Origin: an uncultured Actinomycetota bacterium
GTDB taxonomy: Bacteria > Actinomycetota > Actinomycetes > Mycobacteriales > SCTD01
Length of the DNA stretch: 64,000 bases
Assembly (NCBI GenBank): GCA_963726975.1
Contig: CAVSEK010000013.1
Span: 918,938-982,937, forward strand
Direction of reading: 5' to 3'
The translations under genes and the position numbers were made by a program. Below the pieces are notes generated by a model. That model was not told the DNA's origin and searched no databases. It saw only the letters and a list, made by a program, of their open reading frames with translations. Shown here in pieces: positions 9,214 through 37,030 of this stretch (the stretch's first letter is position 1; the number at the start of each line of letters is the position of its first letter).

Positions 9214-10684
<1,471 letters not shown>

Positions 10685-10695
10685 TCCGCCACCCT

Positions 10696-10736
10696 CCCGC
10701 AGGGCCCGCCGCTCCCGGAGCGGCGGGCCCTGCGGG
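10696..10736 (+). terminator. Strong hairpin after sucB (putative intrinsic terminator)
   Basis: Perfect 19-bp stem cccgcagggcccgccgctc / gagcggcgggccctgcggg with a 3-nt loop. It starts 12 nt after the sucB stop and is followed by cttc. Confidence 0.65.
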
Positions 10737-10747
10737 CTTCGGGCAGG

Positions 10748-11650
10748 ATGATCCGCATGCGCATCGCGGTCACCGGAGCGTCCGGCCTCATCGGCACGCC
10801 CCTCGTCACGGCCCTGCGGGCCGACGGGCACGACGTCGTCCGGCTCGTCCGCGGGGCGGCGTCCGCGCCCGACGAGCGCTCCTGGGACGCCCGCACGCTG
10901 GACCCCGCGGCCGTGGCCGACCGGGACGCGGTCGTGCACCTGGCCGGCGCGGGCGTCGCGGACCACCGCTGGACCCGGTCGTACAAGCAGACCGTGCTGG
11001 ACAGCCGGGTCCAGGGCACCACGGCCGTCTCCCAGGCCATCGCAGCGGCCCGGGCCGGCGGGGCGGGCCCGCAGGTGCTGCTGTCCGCCAGCGCGATCGG
11101 CTACTACGGCGACACCGGCGACCGCGTCACCGACGAGACCGGGCCCGGCGGAGAGGGCTTCCTCGCGGAGGTCTGCCGGCAGTGGGAGGCCGCGACCGCT
11201 CCCGCGGAGACCGCCGGCGCCCGGGTGGCGCACCTGCGCACCGGCATCGTGCTGTCCGGCCAGGGCGGCGCGCTCAAGAAGCAGGTGCTCGCGGCCAAGG
11301 CGTTCGCCGGGGCGCCGCTGGGCAGCGGCCGGCAGTGGTCGAGCTGGATCAGCCTGGCCGACGAGGTCGCCGCGGTGCAGCACCTGCTCGTCGCCGACGT
11401 GTCCGGCCCGGTCAACCTCGTCGGGCCGCACCCGGTGACCAACCGCGAGTTCACCCGCACGCTCAACTCCGTCGTGCACCGCCCGACGATCCCCGTGCCC
11501 GTCCCCGCGCCCGTGCTGCGCCTGGTGCTCGGCGAGTTCGCCGACGAGGGGGTGCTCATCGGACAGCGCCTGGTGCCCGCCGTGCTGGAGCGCAGCGGCT
11601 TCGTCTTCGCCCACCCCGACCTCGAGGCGGCCCTGCGCGCCAGCCTGTGA
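10748..11650 (+). CDS. TIGR01777/YfcH-type NAD-dependent epimerase family protein (with DUF1731-like C-terminus)
   Basis: MRIAVTGASGLIG Rossmann motif and SASAIGYYG. Intact 300-codon ORF. The start is ATG 10748 or 10757. Confidence 0.8.
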   Translation: MIRMRIAVTGASGLIGTPLVTALRADGHDVVRLVRGAASAPDERSWDARTLDPAAVADRDAVVHLAGAGVADHRWTRSYKQTVLDSRVQGTTAVSQAIAAARAGGAGPQVLLSASAIGYYGDTGDRVTDETGPGGEGFLAEVCRQWEAATAPAETAGARVAHLRTGIVLSGQGGALKKQVLAAKAFAGAPLGSGRQWSSWISLADEVAAVQHLLVADVSGPVNLVGPHPVTNREFTRTLNSVVHRPTIPVPVPAPVLRLVLGEFADEGVLIGQRLVPAVLERSGFVFAHPDLEAALRASL

Positions 11651-11654
11651 GCGG

Positions 11655-13073
11655 TCACGTCGGGGTGAGCTCCGCGATCCGCCACTGCTCCGCACCGGGC
11701 ACGAGCACGACCTCGTAGGACGACGGGCCGCGGCCGGGCCGCCGCTCGACGAGCGCGCCGCCCGGGCCGAGCACCGTCGCGGGCGCCAGCCGGTCGGTGA
11801 CGAGCAGCTCGACCCGCTCCGCCGTCGCCGCTCCCGGCCGGACCTCGAGCACGTCGTGCCGCACCCCGGTGGCCGTGCGCCCGGCCGCCCCGAGCGCGCG
11901 CAGCACCGCTGCGTCGGCCTCGCGCGGCGCCGCGCCGGGGGCGTAGACGGCGTCGAGCAGGGTCGGGTCGGCCCGCGCGAACGCCTCCTCCCGCCGGGTG
12001 TCGAGCTCGGCGAGCACCGCCGCCCAGTCGACCGGCCGGTCCCGCACCGGTGGGGGGGCGGCGACCGGCGGCGGCACCGCGAGCGGCAGGCGCCCCGCCA
12101 CGGGGGCCGGGGGGTGCAGCGCCCAGACCAGGCCCGCGACGAGCAGCAGGCCGGCGACGAGGCCCGCCGCGACGACCGGCCAGCGCGGCCGGCGCGGCGC
12201 TCCGGGGTCGGGGACCGCGTCGAGCTGCGCCACGCCGGTCGTCTCGCGCAGCACCGGGGCGTCGCGCGGCGGCGTCCGCCCGTCGTGCAACCGGACCGGC
12301 TCCGGGGCGTGCGCGGCCAGCAGCGCGCTGGCGAGCGCCGCCGCCGTCGGCCGCGCCGCCGGGTCGCCGCACAGCGCGGCCTCCACGACCGCCACGAGCG
12401 CCCGGGGCACGTGCGGGGCGAGCAGCCCCAGCGGGGCCCGCTCGCCCCGCGCGGCCGCGCCCAGCACGTCGTCGACGCTCGCGCCCTCGTGCGGCGGTGA
12501 CCCGCAGAGCAGGTGCGCGCACAGCGCCCCCAGTGCCCAGACGTCCGACGCCGGACCGGGGACGGCGCCGCGGGCCACGACCGGGTCGACGTACTCGGCC
12601 GTCGCCACGACCGGCCGCCGGTCACCCTCCCGCCGGGCCGCACCGAGGTCGGACAGCAGCGGCATCCCGTCGTCGGCGAACAGCACGTTGCGCGGGGACA
12701 GGTCGCCGTGCACCAGGCCCAGCGCGTGGGCCTCGGCGAGCGCCTCGGCCAGGGGCACGGCGACGGTGACGACCTCACCCGGGTCGAGCACGCCGCGACG
12801 CGTCAGCAGAGCCGCCAGGGAGCCGCCACCGGCGTGGTCGAGCACGAGGACGCCGTCGACGGCCGCCCGCAGCCGCACGACGTGCGGCGTGCTCAGCGCC
12901 GACAGCGCCTCGGCCTCCCGCTGCAGCGCGGCCGGGTCGGCCCCGGTCCGCAGCCGCTTCAGCGCGACGGTCTCGCCGCTCGCCAGCTCGCGCGCCCGCC
13001 ACACCTCCCCCGTCGCCCCGAAGCCGAGCATCTGCTCGACCTCGTAGCCCGCCACCACCGGTCTCCCGTCCAC
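11655..13073 (-). CDS. Membrane Ser/Thr protein kinase-like protein with atypical catalytic loop
   Basis: Gly-loop GFGATGEVW, VALK, catalytic loop HGDLSPRNVLF and SDLG. These are followed by a Pro-rich linker, one TM (WPVVAAGLVAGLLLVAGLVWAL) and a C-terminal domain of about 150 aa. Confidence 0.8.
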   Translation of the reverse strand: MDGRPVVAGYEVEQMLGFGATGEVWRARELASGETVALKRLRTGADPAALQREAEALSALSTPHVVRLRAAVDGVLVLDHAGGGSLAALLTRRGVLDPGEVVTVAVPLAEALAEAHALGLVHGDLSPRNVLFADDGMPLLSDLGAARREGDRRPVVATAEYVDPVVARGAVPGPASDVWALGALCAHLLCGSPPHEGASVDDVLGAAARGERAPLGLLAPHVPRALVAVVEAALCGDPAARPTAAALASALLAAHAPEPVRLHDGRTPPRDAPVLRETTGVAQLDAVPDPGAPRRPRWPVVAAGLVAGLLLVAGLVWALHPPAPVAGRLPLAVPPPVAAPPPVRDRPVDWAAVLAELDTRREEAFARADPTLLDAVYAPGAAPREADAAVLRALGAAGRTATGVRHDVLEVRPGAATAERVELLVTDRLAPATVLGPGGALVERRPGRGPSSYEVVLVPGAEQWRIAELTPT

Positions 13074-28013: not shown

Positions 28014-29561
28014 TCACACCCCGCGCTGCTGCCCCGACCAGAAGGGAGCACGCAGCTCGCGGCGCAGCACCTTGCCGGTGGCGTTGCGCGGGAGCTCCTG
28101 CAGGACGTCGTAGGACGTCGGGCGCTTGTAGCCGGCGAGGTGCGACCGGCACAGCGCGTCGAGCTGGGCCGGGTCGACGGAGGCACCCGGGGCCGCCACC
28201 ACGCAGGCCTTGACGGTCTCGCCCCAGCGCTCGTCGGGCACGCCGATGACGGCGACCTCACCGACCGACGGGTCCAGCAGCAGCACGCGCTCCACCTCGG
28301 CCGGGTAGACGTTCTCGCCACCGCTGATGATCATGTCCTTGAGCCGGTCCTCGAGGTAGACGAAGCCGCCCTCGTCGAGGCGGGCGACGTCACCGGTACG
28401 CACCCAGCCGCCCTCGACGAGCGTCTCCTGCGTCGCCTCCGGCCGCTGCCAGTAGCCGGCCATCGCCTGCTCCGACCGCACCCACAGCTCCCCGAGCTCC
28501 CCCGCCGGCACCTCGGTGCCGGACTCGTCGACGACCCGCACCTCCACGCCCGGGTAGGGCCGACCCGCGGACTGCAGGCGCTCGGGGTGCTCGGCGTCGG
28601 CGTGGTCCTCGGGGCTCAGCCAGGTGACGGCCCCCGACAGCTCGGTCATGCCGTAGACCTGCCCGAGGATCCCCGGGAACCGGGCGAGCGCCGCCCGCAT
28701 CAGCGGCGCGGGCATCGGCGACGCGCCGTAGAGCAGGTGCCGCAGGCTCGACAGGTCGCGCCCGGGCAGCGACGGGTCCTGCAGCAGCGCCGCGACGAGC
28801 GCCGGCACCACGAAGGTCTCGGTGACCCGCTCCCGCTCGACGACGTCCAGCAGCAGCGACGGCACCGGGTCGCGGGTGACGACGACGCGCACGCCCGCGG
28901 CGAGCTTGGACAGGGCGTACGCCAGACCGCCCACGTGGTAGAGCGGCATCGGGACGAGCGCCACCGCGTCGCCGGCGGGCGGCACGACCCGCGCCGCCGC
29001 TGCGTCGTGGGCCGCGACCGAGCGGGACGTCAGCATGACGCCCTTGGGGAAGCCGGTCGTGCCCGAGGTGTACAGCTGCAGCACGGCGTCGTCGGGCGAC
29101 CGCTCCGCCCACGTGGGGTCGGGCTCGTGCGCGGCCAGCCACGGCTCGTAGCCGTCGTCCGGACCACCGAGCACGACCACGGTGCGCAGCCGCGGCAACC
29201 GCTCCCGCAGCGGCTCGACGACCGGCGCGAGCTCGTGCCCGACGACGAGCACCTCGGCGGTGCTGTCCTCGAGGGCGAAGTGCAGCTCCTCGGGAGCGAG
29301 CCGCCAGTTGACGACGGCCGTGACCGCGCCGACCCGGGACCCGCCGAGCGCCACCTCCAGGACCGCGGGCGAGTTCTTGTCCAGGACGGCCACCCGGGTG
29401 TCCGGCCCGACGCCGTCCGCACGCAGGGCGGCGCCGACCCGCGCGACCCGCTCGTCGAGCTGCGCCCAGGACCAGGTGCGGTCCTCGGACCGGACCGCCT
29501 CGGCGTCGTCGGTGCGGAGCCTGGCGCCCAGCCGCGGGCCGGTCGTGCGGGAGGGGTCCAC
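28014..29561 (-). CDS. Acyl-CoA synthetase / AMP-dependent ligase (FadD-like)
   Basis: GTG 29561. AMP-binding motifs LYTSGTTGFPKGV, YGMTE, TGDVARLDEGGFVYLEDRLKDMI and GKVLRREL. Confidence 0.85.
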   Translation of the reverse strand: MDPSRTTGPRLGARLRTDDAEAVRSEDRTWSWAQLDERVARVGAALRADGVGPDTRVAVLDKNSPAVLEVALGGSRVGAVTAVVNWRLAPEELHFALEDSTAEVLVVGHELAPVVEPLRERLPRLRTVVVLGGPDDGYEPWLAAHEPDPTWAERSPDDAVLQLYTSGTTGFPKGVMLTSRSVAAHDAAAARVVPPAGDAVALVPMPLYHVGGLAYALSKLAAGVRVVVTRDPVPSLLLDVVERERVTETFVVPALVAALLQDPSLPGRDLSSLRHLLYGASPMPAPLMRAALARFPGILGQVYGMTELSGAVTWLSPEDHADAEHPERLQSAGRPYPGVEVRVVDESGTEVPAGELGELWVRSEQAMAGYWQRPEATQETLVEGGWVRTGDVARLDEGGFVYLEDRLKDMIISGGENVYPAEVERVLLLDPSVGEVAVIGVPDERWGETVKACVVAAPGASVDPAQLDALCRSHLAGYKRPTSYDVLQELPRNATGKVLRRELRAPFWSGQQRGV

Positions 29562-29620
29562 GTCAGCAACCTGCCCGACCGGCCCGGCGGGCGCAAGCAC
29601 CGCCGGGAGGTCGAGGAGCG

Positions 29621-31459
29621 TCAGGCGACCGTGCGGTTGCGCGCAGCCTCGGAGGTGTCCCCGCTGCTCGTCGCGCCGCTCGGCACCCCGGCCGGCGCCG
29701 CGACGCCCGACAGGGCGGTGGCGGTGGCGGTCACCGGTGTGCCGGGGGCCAGCGACGAGGACGGGGAGAACGACCAGCGCCCGCTGCCGTCCGCCCTCGT
29801 CGAGCCCAGGTAGGCGCTGGGCTGCCCGACGTCGCGCACGGTGCCGCGCGTCGAGGGCTGGGCGCGGAAGACCTCCACGACGCAGCCCGCGCAGGCCGTG
29901 CCGCTGATGCTGCTCGGGCTCGCCGACTGCACCACCGGCACCTGGATGCCGTGGTTGACCTGCGGGTCGCCCACGCCGCCCGCGTTGACCTTGCCGTAGG
30001 GCGCCAGGTCGATGCCCAGGGCGGCGTCGTTGTCGTGCACGGAGTTCCGGGTGAACCGGTTGTACGGGGTCGGGATGTGCTCCGGCTCCGGCGGCTGCAC
30101 GCCGTTGGCCTGCACGGCGATGCCCGGCCCGCCGTTGTGGGCGATGACGTTGCCCGGCCCGAAGGTGTTGTTGACGGCGCCGTGCTCGATCCGGATGCCG
30201 AACGCGCCGTTGCCGGCCGGCGTGCCGTCGGGCAGCACGCCGATCCAGTTGTCGTGCACCCAGTCCCACTGCTGGCCCTTGTCGACGACGACGCCGCCCT
30301 TGACGTTGTTCACGATGATGTTGTGCGCCACCTCGATGAACCCGGCGTTGGGCGCGCACGGCGTGCAGTCGTGCTCGCCCTCGAGCCGCACGCCGTAGCC
30401 CGCGATGTTGTCCGGGTTCTGGCCGTTCGCGGCGTACGCCGGCGCGGCCCGGCCGGTGAGGTCGGTGCCGATGTAGTTGCCGATCACGCGGTTGCGCCGG
30501 TTGTTGTTGCCGTGCGAGACCTCGACGCCCTCGTTGCTGTTGCCGGAGATGACGTTGTGCTCGAAGGCGCCCTCGCCCCCGATGAGGTTGTCGTTGGCCG
30601 AGTAGTTGACGTCGAGACCGTGCGCCCGGTTGCCGAGGTTGCGCCGCCCGTCCGGCGAGAGGCCGACGATGTTGTTCTGGACGGTGTTGCGGCTGGTGCC
30701 GGTGAAGCTGGCGGTCAGGCCGCGGTGCGCGCACCCGGAGATGACGTTGCGGTCGGCCGGCGTGGGCGCTCCGACGACGTTGTCGTGGGCGTGGTGGGTG
30801 AGGATGATGCCGGCGGCGCCGCCGTAGACGCCCGGGGCCCGGTAGGTGCCCGAGGAGTCGGTGCACAGGAACGAGCCGACGATGCGGTTGGCCCCGACCT
30901 CGCCGGTGGGGCTGTACTTGCCGTCCAGCAGCACGGAGTGCCGGAACGCGTAGATCGCCAGTCCCCGCAGGACGTTGCCGGAGGACCCGATGCGCAGGCC
31001 CTCGATCCCGCGGGCCCCCGTGCCCTTGATGTTGACCTGGATCACGGCGTCGTCCACCACCGGGTCCGTGTTGGGCCGGGCCCCCGGCTGGGTGTAGCCG
31101 TCGATGGTGGTGCCGGCGGGGTTGCTGAGGACGGGCAGCAGCGAGGTCACCGCGATCGTCGACGGCCCCGCGGAGGGCAGCGCGAAGGCGATGGTCGCGT
31201 GCGTCGTGAGGCGGTCCGCCTCCTGGATCGCGGCCCGCAGCGTGCACTCCCCTCCGGGCGTGCGGCAGATCCCGTCGGGCGAGACGTCGGCCGCGTCGCC
31301 GGTGGACGTGACGGTGAAGACGTCGGTGGGCGCGGCGCTCGAGGGCACCGCGGACCCGCCGACCACGAGCAGCAGAGCCGCCGCCGTCGCCGCGGTCAGC
31401 AGGGCAGGAGGACGTCGGAGCGCGCTGCGCGAGCGCGACCCTCGGCGGAACGGGTTCAT
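29621..31459 (-). CDS. Secreted right-handed parallel beta-helix repeat protein (CSLREA-like N-terminus)
   Basis: Signal peptide (RRGSRSRSALRRPPALLTAATAAALLLVVGGSAVPSSA/AP), then CTLRAAIQEA. Many N..G / GN.I beta-helix repeats follow (NVISGN, HNIIVNN, NVIAHNGG). Confidence 0.8.
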   Translation of the reverse strand: MNPFRRGSRSRSALRRPPALLTAATAAALLLVVGGSAVPSSAAPTDVFTVTSTGDAADVSPDGICRTPGGECTLRAAIQEADRLTTHATIAFALPSAGPSTIAVTSLLPVLSNPAGTTIDGYTQPGARPNTDPVVDDAVIQVNIKGTGARGIEGLRIGSSGNVLRGLAIYAFRHSVLLDGKYSPTGEVGANRIVGSFLCTDSSGTYRAPGVYGGAAGIILTHHAHDNVVGAPTPADRNVISGCAHRGLTASFTGTSRNTVQNNIVGLSPDGRRNLGNRAHGLDVNYSANDNLIGGEGAFEHNVISGNSNEGVEVSHGNNNRRNRVIGNYIGTDLTGRAAPAYAANGQNPDNIAGYGVRLEGEHDCTPCAPNAGFIEVAHNIIVNNVKGGVVVDKGQQWDWVHDNWIGVLPDGTPAGNGAFGIRIEHGAVNNTFGPGNVIAHNGGPGIAVQANGVQPPEPEHIPTPYNRFTRNSVHDNDAALGIDLAPYGKVNAGGVGDPQVNHGIQVPVVQSASPSSISGTACAGCVVEVFRAQPSTRGTVRDVGQPSAYLGSTRADGSGRWSFSPSSSLAPGTPVTATATALSGVAAPAGVPSGATSSGDTSEAARNRTVA

Positions 31460-31638
31460 GGGCTCTCCCAGCAGGCGGGGACGACGGCCCGGTGCGGCGG
31501 GCCGCCACGGACGGTAGTCGCGCCCGGCGCCCGGCGCAGGCGCTCCGGGAAGGGTTCAGGCAGTCGTCAGGGCCGCGCTCCGGCCGACGAGCGCGGCGGT
31601 GCTTGACGCCCGGCCCGGCGTCACGGACGGTGGTCCGC

Positions 31639-32214
31639 GTGTCACCCCTCGCCGCGCCCTTCCTGGCCGCGGCCCTGCTGCTGCTGCTCGCCGGGCTCCT
31701 CAAGCTGCGCCGGCCGGCGGCCACCGCCCAGGCCCTGAGGACCCAGGGCCTGCCCGCGGCCACCGCGCTCGTGCGCGCGCTCGGCGGCGCCGAGGTCCTC
31801 GTCGCCGGAGCCGCGCTCGCCGGCACCCGCACCGGCGCGGTCGGCCTGGCCGTGGCGTACGCCGGCTTCACCGGCTTCGTCGGGCTGGCGCTGCTGCGGG
31901 GCCGCCCGCTGACCTCGTGCGGCTGCTTCGCCGAGCCCGACCTGCCGCCGACCTGGGCGCACCCGGCCGTGACGGCCGGGCTGGCCGCCGCAGCCCTGCT
32001 CGCGGCCGGGACGCCGACCGGCCTCCCCCAGGCGGTCGCCGCCGGGGCGGGCCCCGCCCTGGCCGCCGCCGCCGGCGCGCTCCTCGTCGCCGGGCTCGCG
32101 CTCGTCGTGCTCGCCGAGCTCCCCCGGCTCGTGGCCGAGACCGCTCCGCCGCCGCCCGCGCAGACCGGACCGCTCCCCTTCGCCCTGCTCCCCCTCCCGA
32201 CCGTCCGGAGCTGA
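31639..32214 (+). CDS. MauE/DoxX-family redox-associated membrane protein
   Basis: GTG 31639. Four hydrophobic helices and the TSCGCF motif typical of MauE-type proteins. Confidence 0.75.
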   Translation: MSPLAAPFLAAALLLLLAGLLKLRRPAATAQALRTQGLPAATALVRALGGAEVLVAGAALAGTRTGAVGLAVAYAGFTGFVGLALLRGRPLTSCGCFAEPDLPPTWAHPAVTAGLAAAALLAAGTPTGLPQAVAAGAGPALAAAAGALLVAGLALVVLAELPRLVAETAPPPPAQTGPLPFALLPLPTVRS

Positions 32215-32220
32215 ACCGCC

Positions 32221-33009
32221 GTGACCGTGCTCGTCGTCGCCCTCACCGCCGCTGTCGCCCTGCTCGGCGTGCTCGTCGTCGGCCTGCTGCGCAGCCACGC
32301 CGAGATCCTGCGCCAGCTGCACGCGCTCGGTGCCGGGCGCGAGGACACCGCGCCGGGAGCTCTCGTCGCCCGACCTGCCGACGCGCCGTTCGAGGTCCGC
32401 GACGACGTGCTGCCGCCGGCCGGGGTCACCGGCACCGCCGCCTCCGACCTGGTGGGCACCAGCCCGACCGACGAGGCCGCGCTGCTCAGCGTCGTCGGCG
32501 CCGGGTCCGACACCCTCATCGCCTTCCTGTCGAGCGGGTGCTCGACCTGCCAGGACTTCTGGGACGTCTTCGGCTCCCCCGCCGACCTCGGCCTGCCGCC
32601 GGCGACCCGCCTCGTCGTGGTGACCAAGGGCCCCGACCTGGAGAGCTCGTCCACCGTCGCGCGGCTGGCCCCCGGTCGGGTCCCGGTGCTCATGTCGACG
32701 CAGGCCTGGGAGGACTACGGCGTGCCCGGCAGTCCCTACTTCGTGCTCGTCGACGGCGCGGCCGGGCGGGTGGCCGGCGAGGGCTCGGCGACGACCTGGG
32801 AGCAGGTGGTCCGGCTGTGCCGCGACGCGTCGGCCGACCGCAGCGCCGCCGTCCGCCGGCACGCCGCCGCCGGGCACGGCGGCCCCGAGGACCGCGGCGA
32901 CGGCGCGCACCGGGAGGCCCGCGCCGACCGCGAGCTGGCCGCCGCAGGCATCCTGCCGGGCGACCCCAGCCTCTACCCCGTCGGCGGCGAGGAGGTCGGG
33001 CCGCGGTGA
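32221..33009 (+). CDS. Membrane-anchored thioredoxin-fold protein with CxxC (MauD/TlpA-like)
   Basis: GTG 32221 lies 6 nt after the MauE-like stop. N-terminal TM anchor, LSSGCSTCQDFW (CxxC) and VPGSPYFVLVD. Confidence 0.75.
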   Translation: MTVLVVALTAAVALLGVLVVGLLRSHAEILRQLHALGAGREDTAPGALVARPADAPFEVRDDVLPPAGVTGTAASDLVGTSPTDEAALLSVVGAGSDTLIAFLSSGCSTCQDFWDVFGSPADLGLPPATRLVVVTKGPDLESSSTVARLAPGRVPVLMSTQAWEDYGVPGSPYFVLVDGAAGRVAGEGSATTWEQVVRLCRDASADRSAAVRRHAAAGHGGPEDRGDGAHREARADRELAAAGILPGDPSLYPVGGEEVGPR

Positions 33010-33095: not shown

Positions 33096-33797
33096 ATGCT
33101 CACGAGCATCACCCCGCTCGGTGAGCGGGGCCGCGCCAGCAGGTGGGGGGTGACCGTCACCGCGTACGCCCTGGGCTCCGCCGCCGGCGGCACCGCCGTC
33201 GGCGCCCTCCTCGGGCTGCTCGGGCAGGTGCTCCCGCTCGGGCGGGCACCCGTCGCGACGGCGGTCCTCGTCGCGGGAGCCGCGCTGCTCGCCCTGCTCG
33301 TCGAGGTCGGCGCCCTGCCGGCGCCGCCGACCTGGCGGCGGCAGGTCGACGAGGACTGGCTGCACCGCTACCGCGGCTGGGTCTACGGCGTCGGCTACGG
33401 CGCGCAGCTCGGCGTCGGGCTGGTGACCATCGTGACCTCGACGAGCCTGTACGTCGCGCTGCTGCTGGCGCTGCTCACCGGGTCCGCGGCCGGGGGCGCC
33501 CTCGTCGGTCTCGTGCTGGGGCTGGGGCGTGCGGTGCCCGTGCTCGCGCTGCGGAACGTCACGACGCCGGGCCGGCTCGCGGCGGTCGCCCGCCGCACCG
33601 CGGCCCTCGCCCCGCTCGCCCGCCGCGCGGTCGCCGCAGGCCTCGCGGTCGTCGCCGTGGCCGCGGTGCTGCAGGCGACCACGGCGGGCCCGGCCGCTGC
33701 CGCACCTCCCGCCGCCGCACCCCCCGCCGCCGCACCCCCCGCCGCCGCACCCCCCGCCGCCGCCCCTCCCGCCGCCGCACAGATCGGACCGACGTGA
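33096..33797 (+). CDS. Polytopic membrane protein of unknown family (possibly starting at GTG 33006 with an in-frame TGA at 33084)
   Basis: ATG 33096 is preceded by GAGG. It has several hydrophobic helices and a C-terminal (AAPPA)5 repeat. The same frame is open upstream to GTG 33006, which overlaps the previous stop as GTGA, except for one TGA at 33084-33086. Confidence 0.65.
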   Translation: MLTSITPLGERGRASRWGVTVTAYALGSAAGGTAVGALLGLLGQVLPLGRAPVATAVLVAGAALLALLVEVGALPAPPTWRRQVDEDWLHRYRGWVYGVGYGAQLGVGLVTIVTSTSLYVALLLALLTGSAAGGALVGLVLGLGRAVPVLALRNVTTPGRLAAVARRTAALAPLARRAVAAGLAVVAVAAVLQATTAGPAAAAPPAAAPPAAAPPAAAPPAAAPPAAAQIGPT

Positions 33798-34261
33798 AGC
33801 TCCGCGCCTCGGGCATGGCCCTCGAGCCCGGACCGGGCTGGGAGGTGCGCATCCGCACCCGTCCCGCCGACCCCGCGGCGCCGGAGGGACGACCGCGCGC
33901 CGTCCTGCACGCCGCGACCGTCGCGCTGCCCGAGGACCGCGGCGACTTCGGCGGCGGGGTGACGCCCCTGCTCGGGCCCGACGACGTCTTCGTCACGCTG
34001 TTCGAGCACGAGCCCGAGGCCGCCTCGACCCCGCTGTTCGCGACCCGCGGCCGGCCCACCGTGGCCGCCCTCGACTTCAGCCCCTCGGGGCTGCAGCGCA
34101 CCATCCCCGGCCAGTCGGGCCGCCAGTGGTTCTTCCGCGAGGGCGGCCGCGCCTTCTGCCTCTACGTCGTGCTCGGCAGCCACGCCCGCCGCGCCCCGCT
34201 CGCCCGCCGCGCCGCCGCGCTGCTCGCCACCCTCGACCTCGACCCGGGAGCCGGCTCGTGA
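33794..34261 (+). CDS. Soluble hypothetical protein (155 aa) coupled on both sides
   Basis: GTG 33794 overlaps the upstream TGA, and its own TGA overlaps GTG 34258. There is no signal peptide or TM, and no family was recognised. Confidence 0.55.
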   Translation: MKLRASGMALEPGPGWEVRIRTRPADPAAPEGRPRAVLHAATVALPEDRGDFGGGVTPLLGPDDVFVTLFEHEPEAASTPLFATRGRPTVAALDFSPSGLQRTIPGQSGRQWFFREGGRAFCLYVVLGSHARRAPLARRAAALLATLDLDPGAGS

Positions 34262-35937
34262 CCCTGCTCGCGCACGACACCGCGCCCTCCGCCGAGGTCC
34301 CGACGCGGCGCGGCCTCGTCGGCCTCGTCGACCGGCTGTCCGCCGTCCTCGACCGCCGCACCAGCCGGCGCGGCTTCCTCGCCCGCAGCGCCGTCGTCGG
34401 CTCGGCGCTCGCCGTCGGCCCCGGGCAGTACCTCCTGCGGCCCGGCACCGCGTACGCCGCCGTCTGCGGCTCCGACAGCACGTGCAGCTCGGGCTACACC
34501 GTCTTCTGCGCGACCATCAACGACGGCGTCAACCGGTGCCCGCCGAACGCGCTCGTCGGGGGGTGGTGGAAGGCCGACAACTCCGGCTTCTGCTGCGGCA
34601 GCGCCCGCTACTACATCGACTGCCACAGCTACTGCTCCTGCGGCTGCGGCGGCGGCAGCGCCTTCTGCGGCGAGGGCTGCCGCTCCTGCTCGTGCGGCTG
34701 CGGACCGAAGGACTCCTGCGACCAGCGGCGCGTCTGCTGCAACCAGTTCCGCTACGGCCAGTGCCGCCAGGACGTCTCCTGCACCGGACCGGTCTGGTGC
34801 CGCGTCGTCACGTGCACGCCCCCGTGGCGGATCGCCGACTGGGACTGCTCGACGACCTCGGCCACGGACCCCCGCACCGCCACGCACACCGCCCCCGGGC
34901 TGCCGGACTGCTCCCCGATCGACCGCAAGTACACCTCCTTCGGCAGCCAGGGCTCGTTCCTCGGCGAGCCGCTGACCGGCGAGGTCGCCGTCGCGGGCGG
35001 GGCCTGCACGACGTACGACCGCGGCAGCATCTGCACGTCCCCGGCCACCGGCACGCACGAGGTGCACGGCGCGATCAGGGACACCTGGCTGCGCACCGGC
35101 GGGCCGGCCGGACCGCTGGGCTTCCCCACCACCGACGAGGGGCCGACCGGCGACGGCCGCGGCCGCTACAACCACTTCTCCGGCCGGGCGGGGCTGGGGT
35201 CGGTGTGGTGGCGCCCCGACCTCGGTGCGCACGCCGTCTACGGCGAGGTCCGCGTGCGCTGGGTCGCCCTCGGTGCGGACGGGGGGGTGCTCGGCTACCC
35301 GACGACCTCCGAGGCCGACACCCGCGACGGGCACGGCCGGTTCAACGACTTCGTCGGCCCCGGTGGGGTCGGCTCGGTCTACTGGTCGCCGACGACCGGT
35401 GCCCACGCGGTGTGGGGCGCCATCCGCGAGCGGTGGGCCGCGCTCGACCGCGAGCAGGGGCCGCTGGGCTACCCGACGTCGGAGGAGTCCGTCGCGGCCG
35501 ACGGCGTCGGCCGCACGACGACCTTCTCCGGGTACGGCGGCGTCGGCTCCATCAGCTGGACGCCCGCGACCGGCGCGCACGGAGTGTGGGGAGCGGTGCG
35601 GGCGCGGTGGGTCGACAGCGGCGCCGAGGCCGGGCCCCTGGGCTACCCCGTCAGCTCGGAGGCCGACGCGCCCGGCGGCGGGCGCTACAACGACTTCGTC
35701 GGCGGCGGGACCGCTGCCCGGCCCGCCGGGTCGGTCTACTGGAGCGCCGCGACGGGCGCGCACGGCGTGCGTGGCCCCGTCCGCGCCGCCTGGCTGGAGG
35801 CCGGCGGGCCGGCGGGCCGGCTCGGCTACCCGACCTCGGAGCCCGTCACGGCGGGCCCGCGCACCCGCAGCGACTTCACCGGGGGCTCGGTCACCTACGA
35901 CAGCAGCACCGGCAGGACGACCATCACCTACACCTGA
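34258..35937 (+). CDS. Tat-signal, cysteine-rich (23 Cys) protein with LGFP cell-wall-binding repeats
   Basis: GTG 34258. Twin-arginine motif TSRRGFLARSAVVGSALAV. There are 23 Cys between codons 70 and 197. Five clear repeats follow (PLGFPTTDE, VLGYPTTSE, PLGYPTSEE, PLGYPVSSE, RLGYPTSEP) plus one degenerate LGFP-type repeat. Confidence 0.8.
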   Translation: MTLLAHDTAPSAEVPTRRGLVGLVDRLSAVLDRRTSRRGFLARSAVVGSALAVGPGQYLLRPGTAYAAVCGSDSTCSSGYTVFCATINDGVNRCPPNALVGGWWKADNSGFCCGSARYYIDCHSYCSCGCGGGSAFCGEGCRSCSCGCGPKDSCDQRRVCCNQFRYGQCRQDVSCTGPVWCRVVTCTPPWRIADWDCSTTSATDPRTATHTAPGLPDCSPIDRKYTSFGSQGSFLGEPLTGEVAVAGGACTTYDRGSICTSPATGTHEVHGAIRDTWLRTGGPAGPLGFPTTDEGPTGDGRGRYNHFSGRAGLGSVWWRPDLGAHAVYGEVRVRWVALGADGGVLGYPTTSEADTRDGHGRFNDFVGPGGVGSVYWSPTTGAHAVWGAIRERWAALDREQGPLGYPTSEESVAADGVGRTTTFSGYGGVGSISWTPATGAHGVWGAVRARWVDSGAEAGPLGYPVSSEADAPGGGRYNDFVGGGTAARPAGSVYWSAATGAHGVRGPVRAAWLEAGGPAGRLGYPTSEPVTAGPRTRSDFTGGSVTYDSSTGRTTITYT

Positions 35938-35947
35938 GCGGCGGAGC

Positions 35948-35967
35948 GGCCGGGCGTCCGCCCGGCC
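35948..35967 (+). terminator. GC hairpin after the Cys-rich gene
   Basis: GGCCGGGC-gtcc-GCCCGGCC lies 11 nt after the stop. There is no U-tract. Confidence 0.35.
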
Positions 35968-36046
35968 CTCCTCGGACCGCGACACGCCGACCGGATCACC
36001 CGATCGGGTCCCCGGTCGGCGGCGTCCGGGCGCCGACCTCAGGAGC

Positions 36047-37030
36047 ATGTCGACGACGTCCCGCTCCCGCTGCACGCACCGCCCCGCGCTGGCCCGGCGA
36101 GGCCTGCTCCCCGGTGGTCCCCGCCCGGCCCCCGCCCCGGCCCGCACCGGCCAGGGCCGGGCTGCTGCCGCGGTCGTGACGACCGCTGTCACCGGTGCGC
36201 TCACGGTGGCGCTCGCCGGCGGTGCCGCGCCCGCCTTCGCCGGCCCGGCCGAGGACGCGGTCACGTACGCCTCGCAGCAGGCCGGCAAGCCGTACGTCTA
36301 CGGGGCGACCGGTCCGGCCGGGTTCGACTGCTCCGGGCTGGTGCAGTACGTCTACGCCAAGGCCGGCATCGCCCTGCCGCGCACGTCCGCGCAGCAGTGG
36401 GCCGCCCTGACGCACGTGCCCGCCGAGGACCGGCGCGTCGGCGACGTCCTGTTCTTCTTCACCCCCGCCGGCGTCGTCTACCACGACGCCGTGTACGCCG
36501 GGAACGACCTCATGTGGGCGGCGCCGAAGACCGGCGACGTCGTGAAGCTGCAGAAGGTCTACGACGTGCGCTACGGCGTAGGCCGACCGGGCGCCACGCC
36601 GCTGGTCGCCGAGGGCGCCAGCGGTCCCGCCGTCGCCGATCTGCAGCGCCGGCTCGGCGCGGCTCCGGACGGCACGTTCGGCCCCGGGACGTCCGCGGCC
36701 GTGCGGGCGTTCCAGAGCTCGCGCCGGATGACGGCCGACGGCGTCGTCGGTCCCGCCACCTGGGCCGCCCTGGTCGGGTCGGCCCGCACCGCCGCCCCCG
36801 TCGCGCCGGCGGCCCCCCGCCCGGTGACCGCGCCGGTCGGCGGCAGCCCGCTGCTGCGCCCGGGCGACCGGGGCCCCGCGGTGGCGTCCCTGCAGGCGCT
36901 GCTCCGCGTCGCCCCCGACGGCTCGTTCGGCCCGCGGACCCGCGCCGCCGTCGTCGCCTTCCAGGCCGGCCGAGGCCTGACCGCCGACGGCGTCGTCGGC
37001 AGCCGCACGTGGGGCGCACTGCGCGGCTGA
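36047..37030 (+). CDS. NlpC/P60 peptidoglycan endopeptidase with two PG_binding_1 domains
   Basis: ATG 36047. Signal peptide ending APAFA/GP and catalytic core YVYGATGPAGFDCSGLVQYVY. Two repeats: GPAVADLQRRLG..DGTFGPGT..AVRAFQ and GPAVASLQALL..DGSFGPRT..AVVAFQ. Confidence 0.85.
   Translation: MSTTSRSRCTHRPALARRGLLPGGPRPAPAPARTGQGRAAAAVVTTAVTGALTVALAGGAAPAFAGPAEDAVTYASQQAGKPYVYGATGPAGFDCSGLVQYVYAKAGIALPRTSAQQWAALTHVPAEDRRVGDVLFFFTPAGVVYHDAVYAGNDLMWAAPKTGDVVKLQKVYDVRYGVGRPGATPLVAEGASGPAVADLQRRLGAAPDGTFGPGTSAAVRAFQSSRRMTADGVVGPATWAALVGSARTAAPVAPAAPRPVTAPVGGSPLLRPGDRGPAVASLQALLRVAPDGSFGPRTRAAVVAFQAGRGLTADGVVGSRTWGALRG

Follow-up and report, generated by a model that had tools for sequence, protein, structure and literature searches.

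A cysteine-rich, LGFP-repeat protein of Actinomycetota encoded in an operon with homologues of MauE, MauD and MauF

Genes and features at the locus

A gene for a cysteine-rich protein with a twin-arginine translocation (Tat) leader is the subject of this analysis. It lies on a 64,000-nucleotide stretch of contig CAVSEK010000013.1 from an uncultured Actinomycetota bacterium; this whole stretch is referred to below as the window. The open reading frame (ORF) runs on the forward strand from a GTG codon at 34258 to a stop codon at 35935-35937, and its 559-residue product is identical to that of a gene called on a public contig of 1.09 Mb. Residues 70-197 (nucleotides 34465-34848), which a first-pass annotation of the sequence had singled out, read exactly as quoted there, with 23 Cys in 128 residues (18%), all encoded by TGC codons, and five Trp. 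CxC motifs start at residues 126, 128, 144 and 146, and CC pairs occur at 112-113 and 160-161. Against a background Cys content of 0.77%, taken from four neighbouring proteins and the C-terminal part of the protein itself, 23 Cys in 128 residues corresponds to a binomial P of about 1e-24.

The G+C content of the window is about 76% throughout. In the frame of the cysteine-rich gene the third-codon-position GC is 98%, as expected of a true frame at 76% GC, and the frame is also backed by hundreds of homologues with invariant residues; together these identify it as the true coding frame. Very long ORFs overlap the real genes of the region on both strands and in other frames (28014-32693 and 34162-36288 on the reverse strand, 34482-36179 on the forward strand, and others), which is typical of a genome with 76% GC. 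Their translations are rich in Arg, Pro, Ala and Gly, and they were rejected as genes.

The protein consists of a Tat leader, the Cys-rich domain and a C-terminal array of LGFP repeats (Table 1). The leader matches TIGR01409 with 21-22 bits (cut-off 16.7), its twin arginines being residues 37 and 38; 37 of 45 family precursors match the same model, and R37 is invariant in the family. Signal peptidase likely cleaves after AYA (residues 65-67). A lipoprotein reading was rejected by eye, because the A-A-V-C sequence before and at C70 is no lipobox. The repeat array matches PF08310 in six stretches (E 2.7e-86, 284 bits against a cut-off of 22), with LG[FY]P motifs at residues 287, 345, 403, 461 and 522. 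The earlier proposal of a wall-anchored protein is thus supported by repeats on the C-terminal side, for which the Pfam family predicts binding to the cell wall.

Table 1. Features of the operon and of the cysteine-rich protein, in window coordinates.
Feature	Position	Strand	Basis and remarks
MauE homologue, predicted membrane disulfide oxidase	31492..32214	+	PF07291, E 5e-14; CGC motif at nt 31918-31926
MauD-like thioredoxin-fold protein with N-terminal membrane anchor	32221..33009	+	CxxC (CSTC) at nt 32539-32550
MauF-like polytopic membrane protein, DsbD_2 superfamily, no Cys	33096..33797	+	PF13386, E 9.6e-7
Small conserved protein of about 146 residues, no signal peptide	33821..34261	+	Alternative GTG start at 33800
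Tat leader, residues 1-69	34258..34464	+	TIGR01409; twin arginine at 34366-34371
Cys-rich domain, residues 66-215	34453..34902	+	Family-defined limits; 34465-34848 is the core
Variable CxC-rich insertion, residues 126-145, CSCGCGGGSAFCGEGCRSCS	34633..34692	+	Conservation in the family alignment
Six LGFP repeats, the first degenerate	34930..35934	+	PF08310

The operon and its conservation

Four genes precede the cysteine-rich gene, and the MauE- and MauD-like neighbours reported in the first-pass annotation were recovered, with a MauF-like protein in addition. The active-site motif of the MauE homologue reads C-G-C-F; its true start probably lies further downstream than the listed ORF start. 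In the MauD-like protein, C107-x-x-C110 is invariant among 33 orthologues, 23 of which match the MauD model TIGR02661 (best E 2.7e-9). The profile of these orthologues aligns with Paracoccus denitrificans MauD in hhalign at a probability of 96.4% (E 1.4e-9, score 65.5 against 13.0 ± 2.4 for shuffled controls) and finds weak matches to StoA and YkuV in the Protein Data Bank (PDB). The MauF-like profile, built from 30 orthologues, aligns with P. denitrificans MauF over 150 columns (probability 97.6%, E 3.6e-12, score 83.6 against 12.8 ± 2.3 for shuffled controls). Its invariant residues are R82, Q83, E86, W88, R93 and W95, and it has no conserved Cys. At its C-terminus the window copy carries an (AAPPA)n tail, encoded at 33694-33780 by 5.8 copies of a 15-bp unit (93% matches), which orthologues elsewhere do not have; a tblastn search with the MauF-like protein against plasmids gave no match. 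The stop codon of the fourth gene overlaps the start of the cysteine-rich gene in the sequence GTGA (34258-34261). The small protein that it encodes matches nothing in Pfam, NCBIfam or the PDB, whether as a single sequence or as a profile, and shows no similarity to MauJ.

All of the 46 related loci with enough flanking sequence have the MauD-like gene and the small gene; 40 of them have the MauF-like gene and 29 have mauE (by tblastn at 1e-5). Three gene orders occur, and in 46 of 46 loci the small gene lies directly upstream of the last exported gene. Where the Cys-rich protein stands alone, the last gene encodes a secreted PD40 propeller protein with SLH, FG-GAP or an unnamed module of about 100 residues. 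PD40 genes are absent where the Cys-rich domain is fused to wall-binding repeats, and the window holds no relative of the PD40 gene of the other loci. In Nakamurella-type genomes (loci L041, L060 and L061, at about 10400-11330) two or three copies of the same unnamed module follow the Cys-rich domain in tandem, and a single copy is found at the C-terminus of separate PD40 proteins (locus L003, at about 11620-11980); the module has no Pfam match. A fusion of the Cys-rich domain to a PD40 propeller in the Nakamurella-type loci was considered and rejected, as the tblastn match is to this C-terminal module of the PD40 proteins.

The gene order invites comparison with amine dehydrogenase clusters. 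The reference cluster of P. denitrificans for methylamine dehydrogenase (MADH) reads mauF-B-E-D-A-amicyanin-J-G. In four plasmid clusters of the aromatic amine dehydrogenase (AADH) type, from Pseudomonas, Haematobacter, Novosphingobium and Cupriavidus (L087-L090), the order is heavy chain-mauE-mauD-light chain; three of them continue with cytochrome c genes and that of Novosphingobium with a hypothetical protein, and neither mauF nor mauG lies within 5 kb of any of the four. As in these clusters, MauE and a MauD-type CxxC protein are encoded in one operon with a small Cys-rich protein and, as in Paracoccus, with a MauF-type membrane protein. The cysteine-rich gene holds the place of mauA, being the last gene of an operon for MauE, MauD-like, MauF-like and small proteins.

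The genes that flank the operon are different. On the forward strand, the gene after the cysteine-rich gene (about 36200-37030) encodes an NlpC/P60 peptidoglycan endopeptidase with two peptidoglycan-binding-1 repeats, with matches to PDB sequences down to 2e-19. On the reverse strand, 29621-31459 encodes a 612-residue protein with a signal-peptide-like N-terminus and repetitive Gly/Asn-rich segments, which has no PDB sequence match and by eye looks like a parallel beta-helix. Neither was accepted as part of the system, as they are not conserved with it (NlpC/P60 is found downstream in one of 80 loci).

A family of cysteine-rich domains

Residues 70-197 are the core of an unnamed secreted domain of about 150 residues that is confined to Actinomycetota. 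Among clusters at 90% identity it has 154 relatives, mostly stand-alone Tat proteins of about 205 residues that are named 'hypothetical'. An exhaustive search with a hidden Markov model (HMM) yielded 463 clusters at 50% identity, most of them of 300-740 residues; in the exhaustive search of representatives, the best 150 matches listed were all family members. Members occur in at least 535 species-level genomes, which all belong to Actinomycetota where named; among the hosts are Kineococcus (about 80% identity), Nakamurella, Pedococcus, Jatrophihabitans, Frankiaceae, Acidimicrobiia and Microthrixaceae. The domain has no Pfam or NCBIfam match at E ≤ 1 in the window protein, in 54 members searched against Pfam or in 45 precursors searched against NCBIfam. 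Neither the single sequence nor the family profile matches a PDB sequence at E ≤ 10, and a literature search found no paper on the family.

A structure model of residues 66-215 (AlphaFold, with 54 trimmed homologues) reached a mean predicted local distance difference test (pLDDT) value of 88.9 and a predicted template modelling score of 0.84. It places strands at residues 98-106, 117-124 and 179-185, and Foldseek finds nothing significantly similar to it in the PDB or BFVD.

The modules that follow the domain were assigned in 90 long representatives as LGFP (44), CWB2 (6), FG-GAP (5) and SLH (2), and LGFP repeats follow it in about 47 of 80 species loci. A C-terminal LGFP array as anchor is shared with other wall-associated actinobacterial proteins (PF08310), but the head here is an unnamed Cys-rich domain and not a known enzyme. 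In the Kineococcus rubinsiae copy of the domain (L082, 10001-10684) the sequence is normal as far as ...CGEGCRA, after which the frame turns Arg/Ala-rich; this looks like a frameshift or an assembly error. In locus L015 (10001-12523) the stop-to-stop frame of the Cys-rich domain and LGFP repeats extends into a GDP-mannose 4,6-dehydratase (residues 518-827), which is probably an adjacent gene in the same frame and not a true fusion.

Predicted disulfide bonds and the CxC-rich centre

Residue conservation was computed on 249 full-length domain representatives (50% clustering), to which the counts below refer. Ten Cys are invariant (C70, C84, C94, C112, C122, C154, C169, C181, C186 and C197), and six more, at positions 76, 85, 146, 148, 161 and 214, are at least 92% conserved; across the family a domain carries 16 to 25 Cys. 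The least conserved part of the domain is residues 126-144 (CSCGCGGG...), at the start of the CxC-rich centre that the first-pass annotation had quoted (residues 126-149); here columns are gapped in about 30% of representatives and C128, C130, C137 and C141 have an occupancy of 55-69%. The presence and absence of Cys co-varies in pairs, namely C76 with C148 (phi 0.94), C85 with C214 (phi 0.90), C144 with C160 (phi 0.98) and C146 with C161 (phi 0.97). C128, C137 and C141 are gained and lost as one block (phi 0.91-0.95), and C85 and C214 are both absent from the window copy. Loss of Cys as independent pairs points to disulfide partners rather than to ligand sets of three or four.

The first-pass annotation had read the centre as a metal-thiolate cluster motif. 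In its general form this explanation would make the domain a metallothionein-like site for Zn, Cu or Fe-S that is loaded in the cytoplasm, and it would account for both the Tat leader and the small partner protein, which would be cytoplasmic. The CxC and CC runs, the Tat leader, the adjoining conserved protein without a signal peptide and the frequent odd numbers of Cys are all consistent with it, as is the membership of the MauF-like protein in the DsbD_2 superfamily, which also includes metal transporters. It is set against the pairwise co-variation of the Cys, the absence of the CxC-rich stretch from about 30% of members and an operon that encodes a disulfide oxidase with a CxxC carrier. 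In addition, no match to metallothioneins or other metal-site families was found in Pfam at E ≤ 1 among the 54 members. High-GC actinobacteria use Tat for export in general, so that a Tat leader by itself does not point to a cofactor. A metal-thiolate site is therefore very improbable, and the proposed cluster motif does not hold up: by its pattern of conservation the CxC-rich centre is a lineage-variable, apparently disulfide-stapled insertion and not a metal cluster.

Relationship to the light chains of amine dehydrogenases

By eye, the domain had been likened in the first-pass annotation to MauA, the MADH light chain, from a pattern of Cys, CPPG and Trp, and Trp residues beside Cys had been taken as a context in which Trp-derived quinones form. 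If this were correct, the domain could be related to the MADH/AADH light chain by descent, though very diverged, and have kept such a quinone, and the protein would be a wall-bound quinoprotein oxidoreductase of Gram-positive bacteria. The cofactor might then be a W104-W180 pair resembling tryptophan tryptophylquinone (TTQ) in the Kineococcus-type clade, and a Cys-Trp link resembling cysteine tryptophylquinone (CTQ) elsewhere. Favouring this explanation, the operon joins homologues of MauF, MauE and MauD to a Tat-exported, Cys-rich protein of MauA-like size with a long Tat leader.

Direct comparison of the mature domain with light chains gave negative or at best marginal results. PF02975 (MADH light chain) has no match at E ≤ 1 in the window protein or the 54 members, TIGR02659 has none among the 45 precursors, and the unfiltered MauA HMM scores at most 1.0 bit against the 249 domains, compared with 1.4 bits for shuffled sequences. 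When the mature domains were aligned by hhalign with 34 MauA sequences, the probability was 3-6% over 13-21 columns around G.N.CPPG(T). The score of 21.7 compares with 13.9 ± 3.1 for column shuffles, 5 of 150 of which scored as high. Addition of four AADH-type light chains to the MauA profile left the result unchanged. The motif G.N.CPPG(T) is thus the part of the proposed pattern that was recovered, being the only mature segment that hhalign aligns. With the model of pLDDT 88.9, Foldseek returned no MADH or AADH chain; for an earlier, low-confidence model the four best PDB matches were AADH light chains, which counts in favour of homology, though at E 1-2. A forced alignment keeps the order C..C..G..CC..CPPG..W..C..Y.DC, so that G.N.CPPG(T), an invariant Trp and Y.DC follow each other as in MauA. 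It sets W104 on Trp57 of TTQ and D121 on Asp76 (P. denitrificans numbering), and W103, W104 and D121 are all invariant, but its posterior confidence is near zero. The suggested resemblance to the MADH light chain therefore finds no significant profile or structure match, and the protein cannot, on present sequence comparison, be filed under PF02975.

The leaders were compared as well. With the MauA leader profile, a score of 38.6 is reached by the window leader and of 35.5 ± 5.2 by the family leaders; 13 generic Tat leaders, whose sequences were not taken from a database, score 21.3 ± 5.0. The window leader is nearer to MauA/AauA leaders than 12 of these 13. The n-region upstream of the twin arginines adds about 11.6 score units, and the observed value was reached by none of 150 shuffles. 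Among the generic leaders TorA reaches a score of 35.4 and a probability of 93%. Whole precursors align with MauA precursors in hhalign at probabilities of 95.9-96.4% (E 1e-9 to 5e-9), mostly through the generic Tat signal; this value was rejected as proof of homology, as TorA reaches 93%. Seven other Tat leaders from the related loci were too few and too poor to serve as a control and were not used.

The Trp residues named in the first-pass annotation proved to differ widely in conservation. Both Trp of GGWWKAD, W103 and W104, are found in all 249 representatives. By contrast, only 2 of the 249 (about 1%) have W180, position 190 is mostly Trp (55%) or Tyr (42%), and W195 belongs to an insertion. 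Conservation thus bears out the WW pair and not the other three. W180 and W195 mark the Kineococcus-type clade (L006-L016), which has lost both C85 and C214, with the exception of L015, where both are kept alongside W180; we infer that aromatic packing replaces the lost C85-C214 disulfide in this clade. The PVWC sequence of the window clade, with Trp before C181, recalls IIWC of MauA and would fit a TTQ-like pair, but in 99% of the family this position, which would correspond to Trp108, is occupied by Val, Ala or Thr; it is Trp in 2 of 249 including the window copy. The second Trp of TTQ is thus missing from nearly all members, which also have about twice the Cys of MauA.

The enzymes and partners of tryptophylquinone proteins were also sought. 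Every known tryptophylquinone requires MauG, LodB/GoxB or QhpD/E/G (PMC7876137). No ORF of at least 100 residues with a CxxCH motif was found in the 64 kb window, and in 1.28 Mb from 85 related loci a single ORF with two CxxCH motifs was seen, which is not conserved, although MauG was detected in a control locus. The lack of a conserved dihaem protein speaks against a quinone; since the AADH clusters also have no nearby mauG (or mauF), a missing local mauG is not decisive. PD40 proteins were rejected as equivalents of the heavy chain (hhalign probability 1.7% to MauB/AauB), and the genes called in four loci include no cupredoxin or cytochrome partner. The window and the related loci thus differ from MADH systems in having no heavy chain, amicyanin, cytochrome or MauG, and from MADH and AADH systems alike in their Gram-positive hosts and in the fusion to wall-binding repeats. 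The gamma subunit of quinohaemoprotein amine dehydrogenase, QhpC, is another small, cross-linked, Cys-rich protein with a Trp-derived quinone, CTQ; its cross-links are Cys-to-Asp/Glu thioethers and not disulfides, and its maturation by QhpD, QhpE and QhpG is cytoplasmic (PMC7876137). None of these three was found near the Cys-rich family in the called genes of the four loci, and the family profile gave no QhpC match in the PDB.

The division of labour among the mau genes bears on the same question. In methylamine dehydrogenase systems mauF, mauE and mauD serve the export and folding of the small subunit, and mauG and mauL serve cofactor synthesis. Mutants in mauF, mauE or mauD, in work dated to 1994 (Chistoserdov) and 1997 (van der Palen), reportedly lack the small subunit, and mauG mutants are said to produce an enzyme without activity. 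Of the two sets of genes, the actinobacterial operon has the one for export and folding but not the one for the cofactor, which argues against a quinone. In its manner of production the domain appears analogous to the MADH light chain, yet it is not a demonstrable member of that family.

From the operon context a very distant common origin with MauA is plausible, at somewhat below an even chance. A diverged light chain that still carries its quinone is distinctly unlikely, and little credence can be given to a Trp-derived cofactor in the head as such. The same low credence applies to the bolder form in which the family is a Gram-positive branch of tryptophylquinone small subunits, with a wall-tethered head that needs no heavy chain and bears a quinone or a Cys-Trp link at W103/W104. 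Under such a reading the Kineococcus-type clade may have regained a TTQ-like Trp-Trp pair through W180, and the cofactor would form without a MauG-type dihaem enzyme. In a weaker form of it, TTQ light chains would be a specialised offshoot of a larger family without cofactor.

The invariant patch

Besides the ten Cys and the WW pair, N92, P95, G102, D121, F164, R165, Y166, G167 and R182 are 100% conserved. In the model the invariant non-Cys residues sit on or beside the three predicted strands. A patch of W103, W104, R117, Y118, D121, R182, F164-Q168 and N92 around the three-stranded sheet is probably the working surface of the predicted fold, and most likely it binds a ligand or a partner.

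Alternatively, the head might have no site of its own and serve as a disulfide-knotted spacer or scaffold that resists proteases, or as a tethered inhibitor of enzymes acting on the wall; the mau-like genes would then be its folding machinery and nothing more. In agreement with this, the domain resembles no enzyme fold of the PDB or BFVD, and the fusion partners are all wall-binding or propeller modules and never catalytic. The gene downstream in the window, for an NlpC/P60 wall hydrolase, would also fit, but this neighbour is conserved in only 1 of 80 loci. Nine residues other than Cys, Gly and Pro that are identical in 249 of 249 domains (among them WW, D, R, FRY and R) exceed what a spacer needs, and that at least 535 species have kept a dedicated operon of five genes suggests a specific role. 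A spacer, scaffold or inhibitor is accordingly rated as unlikely.

A proposed client of a MauF/MauE/MauD-type folding pathway

The explanation to which we lean, by a little more than an even chance, is that the domain is a new client of an export and oxidative-folding module of the MauF/MauE/MauD type, tethered to the wall and equipped with an invariant functional patch. The precursor, whose Tat leader is plain in the sequence and has some likeness to that of MauA, would leave the cell through Tat. Outside the membrane its Cys, some 22 in number, would be oxidised to disulfides by the CGC site of MauE, with the quinone pool as acceptor and the MauD-like protein as carrier. The MauF-like protein would assist. 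This oxidation step as a whole is suggested by homology and by the roles reported for MauE, MauD and MauF. The folded head would then be retained in the wall by the six LGFP repeats, and the WW/R/Y/D/FRYGQ/R patch would be its working surface. About 11 disulfide bonds belong to this explanation and share its slight lean as a whole; the MADH beta subunit, likewise rich in disulfides, has six (PMC7876137).

The identities of the genes, their synteny, the conservation of residues and the statistics of Cys pairing are observed directly, and what is known of MauE speaks for the proposed pathway. MauE substitutes for DsbB in Escherichia coli by means of a CXC site, with CXC-Phe as its active site, and MauD is taken to be its DsbA-like carrier; MauE is far commoner than MauA, about 90% of species with MauE being without MauA (10.64898/2026.03.05.709764). 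The window agrees with that pathway in that a MauE of the CXC-Phe type adjoins a thioredoxin-fold CxxC protein, here beside a 23-Cys client. The published MauE is a generalist for which no client is named (10.64898/2026.03.05.709764), whereas here a dedicated operon serves one Cys-rich candidate client. A CGC-Phe MauE, a partner with an invariant CxxC and a multi-Cys protein with a Tat leader, together in one conserved operon, place the protein in the functional class of clients for MauE/MauD folding, with or without MauF.

A similar arrangement is known from Streptomyces, where candidate clusters for ribosomally synthesised and post-translationally modified peptides found by decRiPPter contain mauE, and in one case also mauD, with a small product of at least eight Cys, in genomes otherwise devoid of mau genes (PMC7794033). 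Those products are of about 60 residues and unrelated in sequence, being without FRYGQC, GGWWK and CPPG. They have no Tat leader and no LGFP repeats, and a mauF-like gene is not mentioned (PMC7794033).

Several points weigh against a folding client of this kind. Its support is computational throughout. The disulfide map comes from co-variation only, and 111 of 249 domains, including that of the window with its 23 Cys, have an odd number of Cys, so that at least one is often unpaired; in the window copy this is likely C113. A protein that depends on disulfides formed outside the cytoplasm is an unusual substrate for Tat, and there may be a cytoplasmic step in which the small conserved protein acts as chaperone. 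The MauD-like copy of the window has no Pfam or NCBIfam match of its own, its assignment resting on orthologues. Together MauF, MauE, MauD and the MauA-like leader raise the chance of a true diverged relative of MauA with related chemistry, and the function of the head is left without explanation by the folding pathway itself.

Significance

To our knowledge, no natural client of MauE outside the mau cluster is known, nor is any function of MauF. The operon would provide a natural and dedicated client for the MauF/MauE/MauD set in Gram-positive bacteria, in which the roles of the three helpers can be tested. The Streptomyces clusters that combine mauE with an unrelated Cys-rich peptide appear to show the same theme. 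If the domain did carry a quinone, it would be the first tryptophylquinone-type protein of Gram-positives and one made without a MauG-type enzyme. In the reading that we favour, the novelty lies in a maturation module of the mau small-subunit type that would serve a new, widespread and wall-tethered Cys-rich domain. The family, for which neither Pfam nor NCBIfam has a model, has members in at least 535 species and is a sizeable unannotated part of the actinobacterial envelope.

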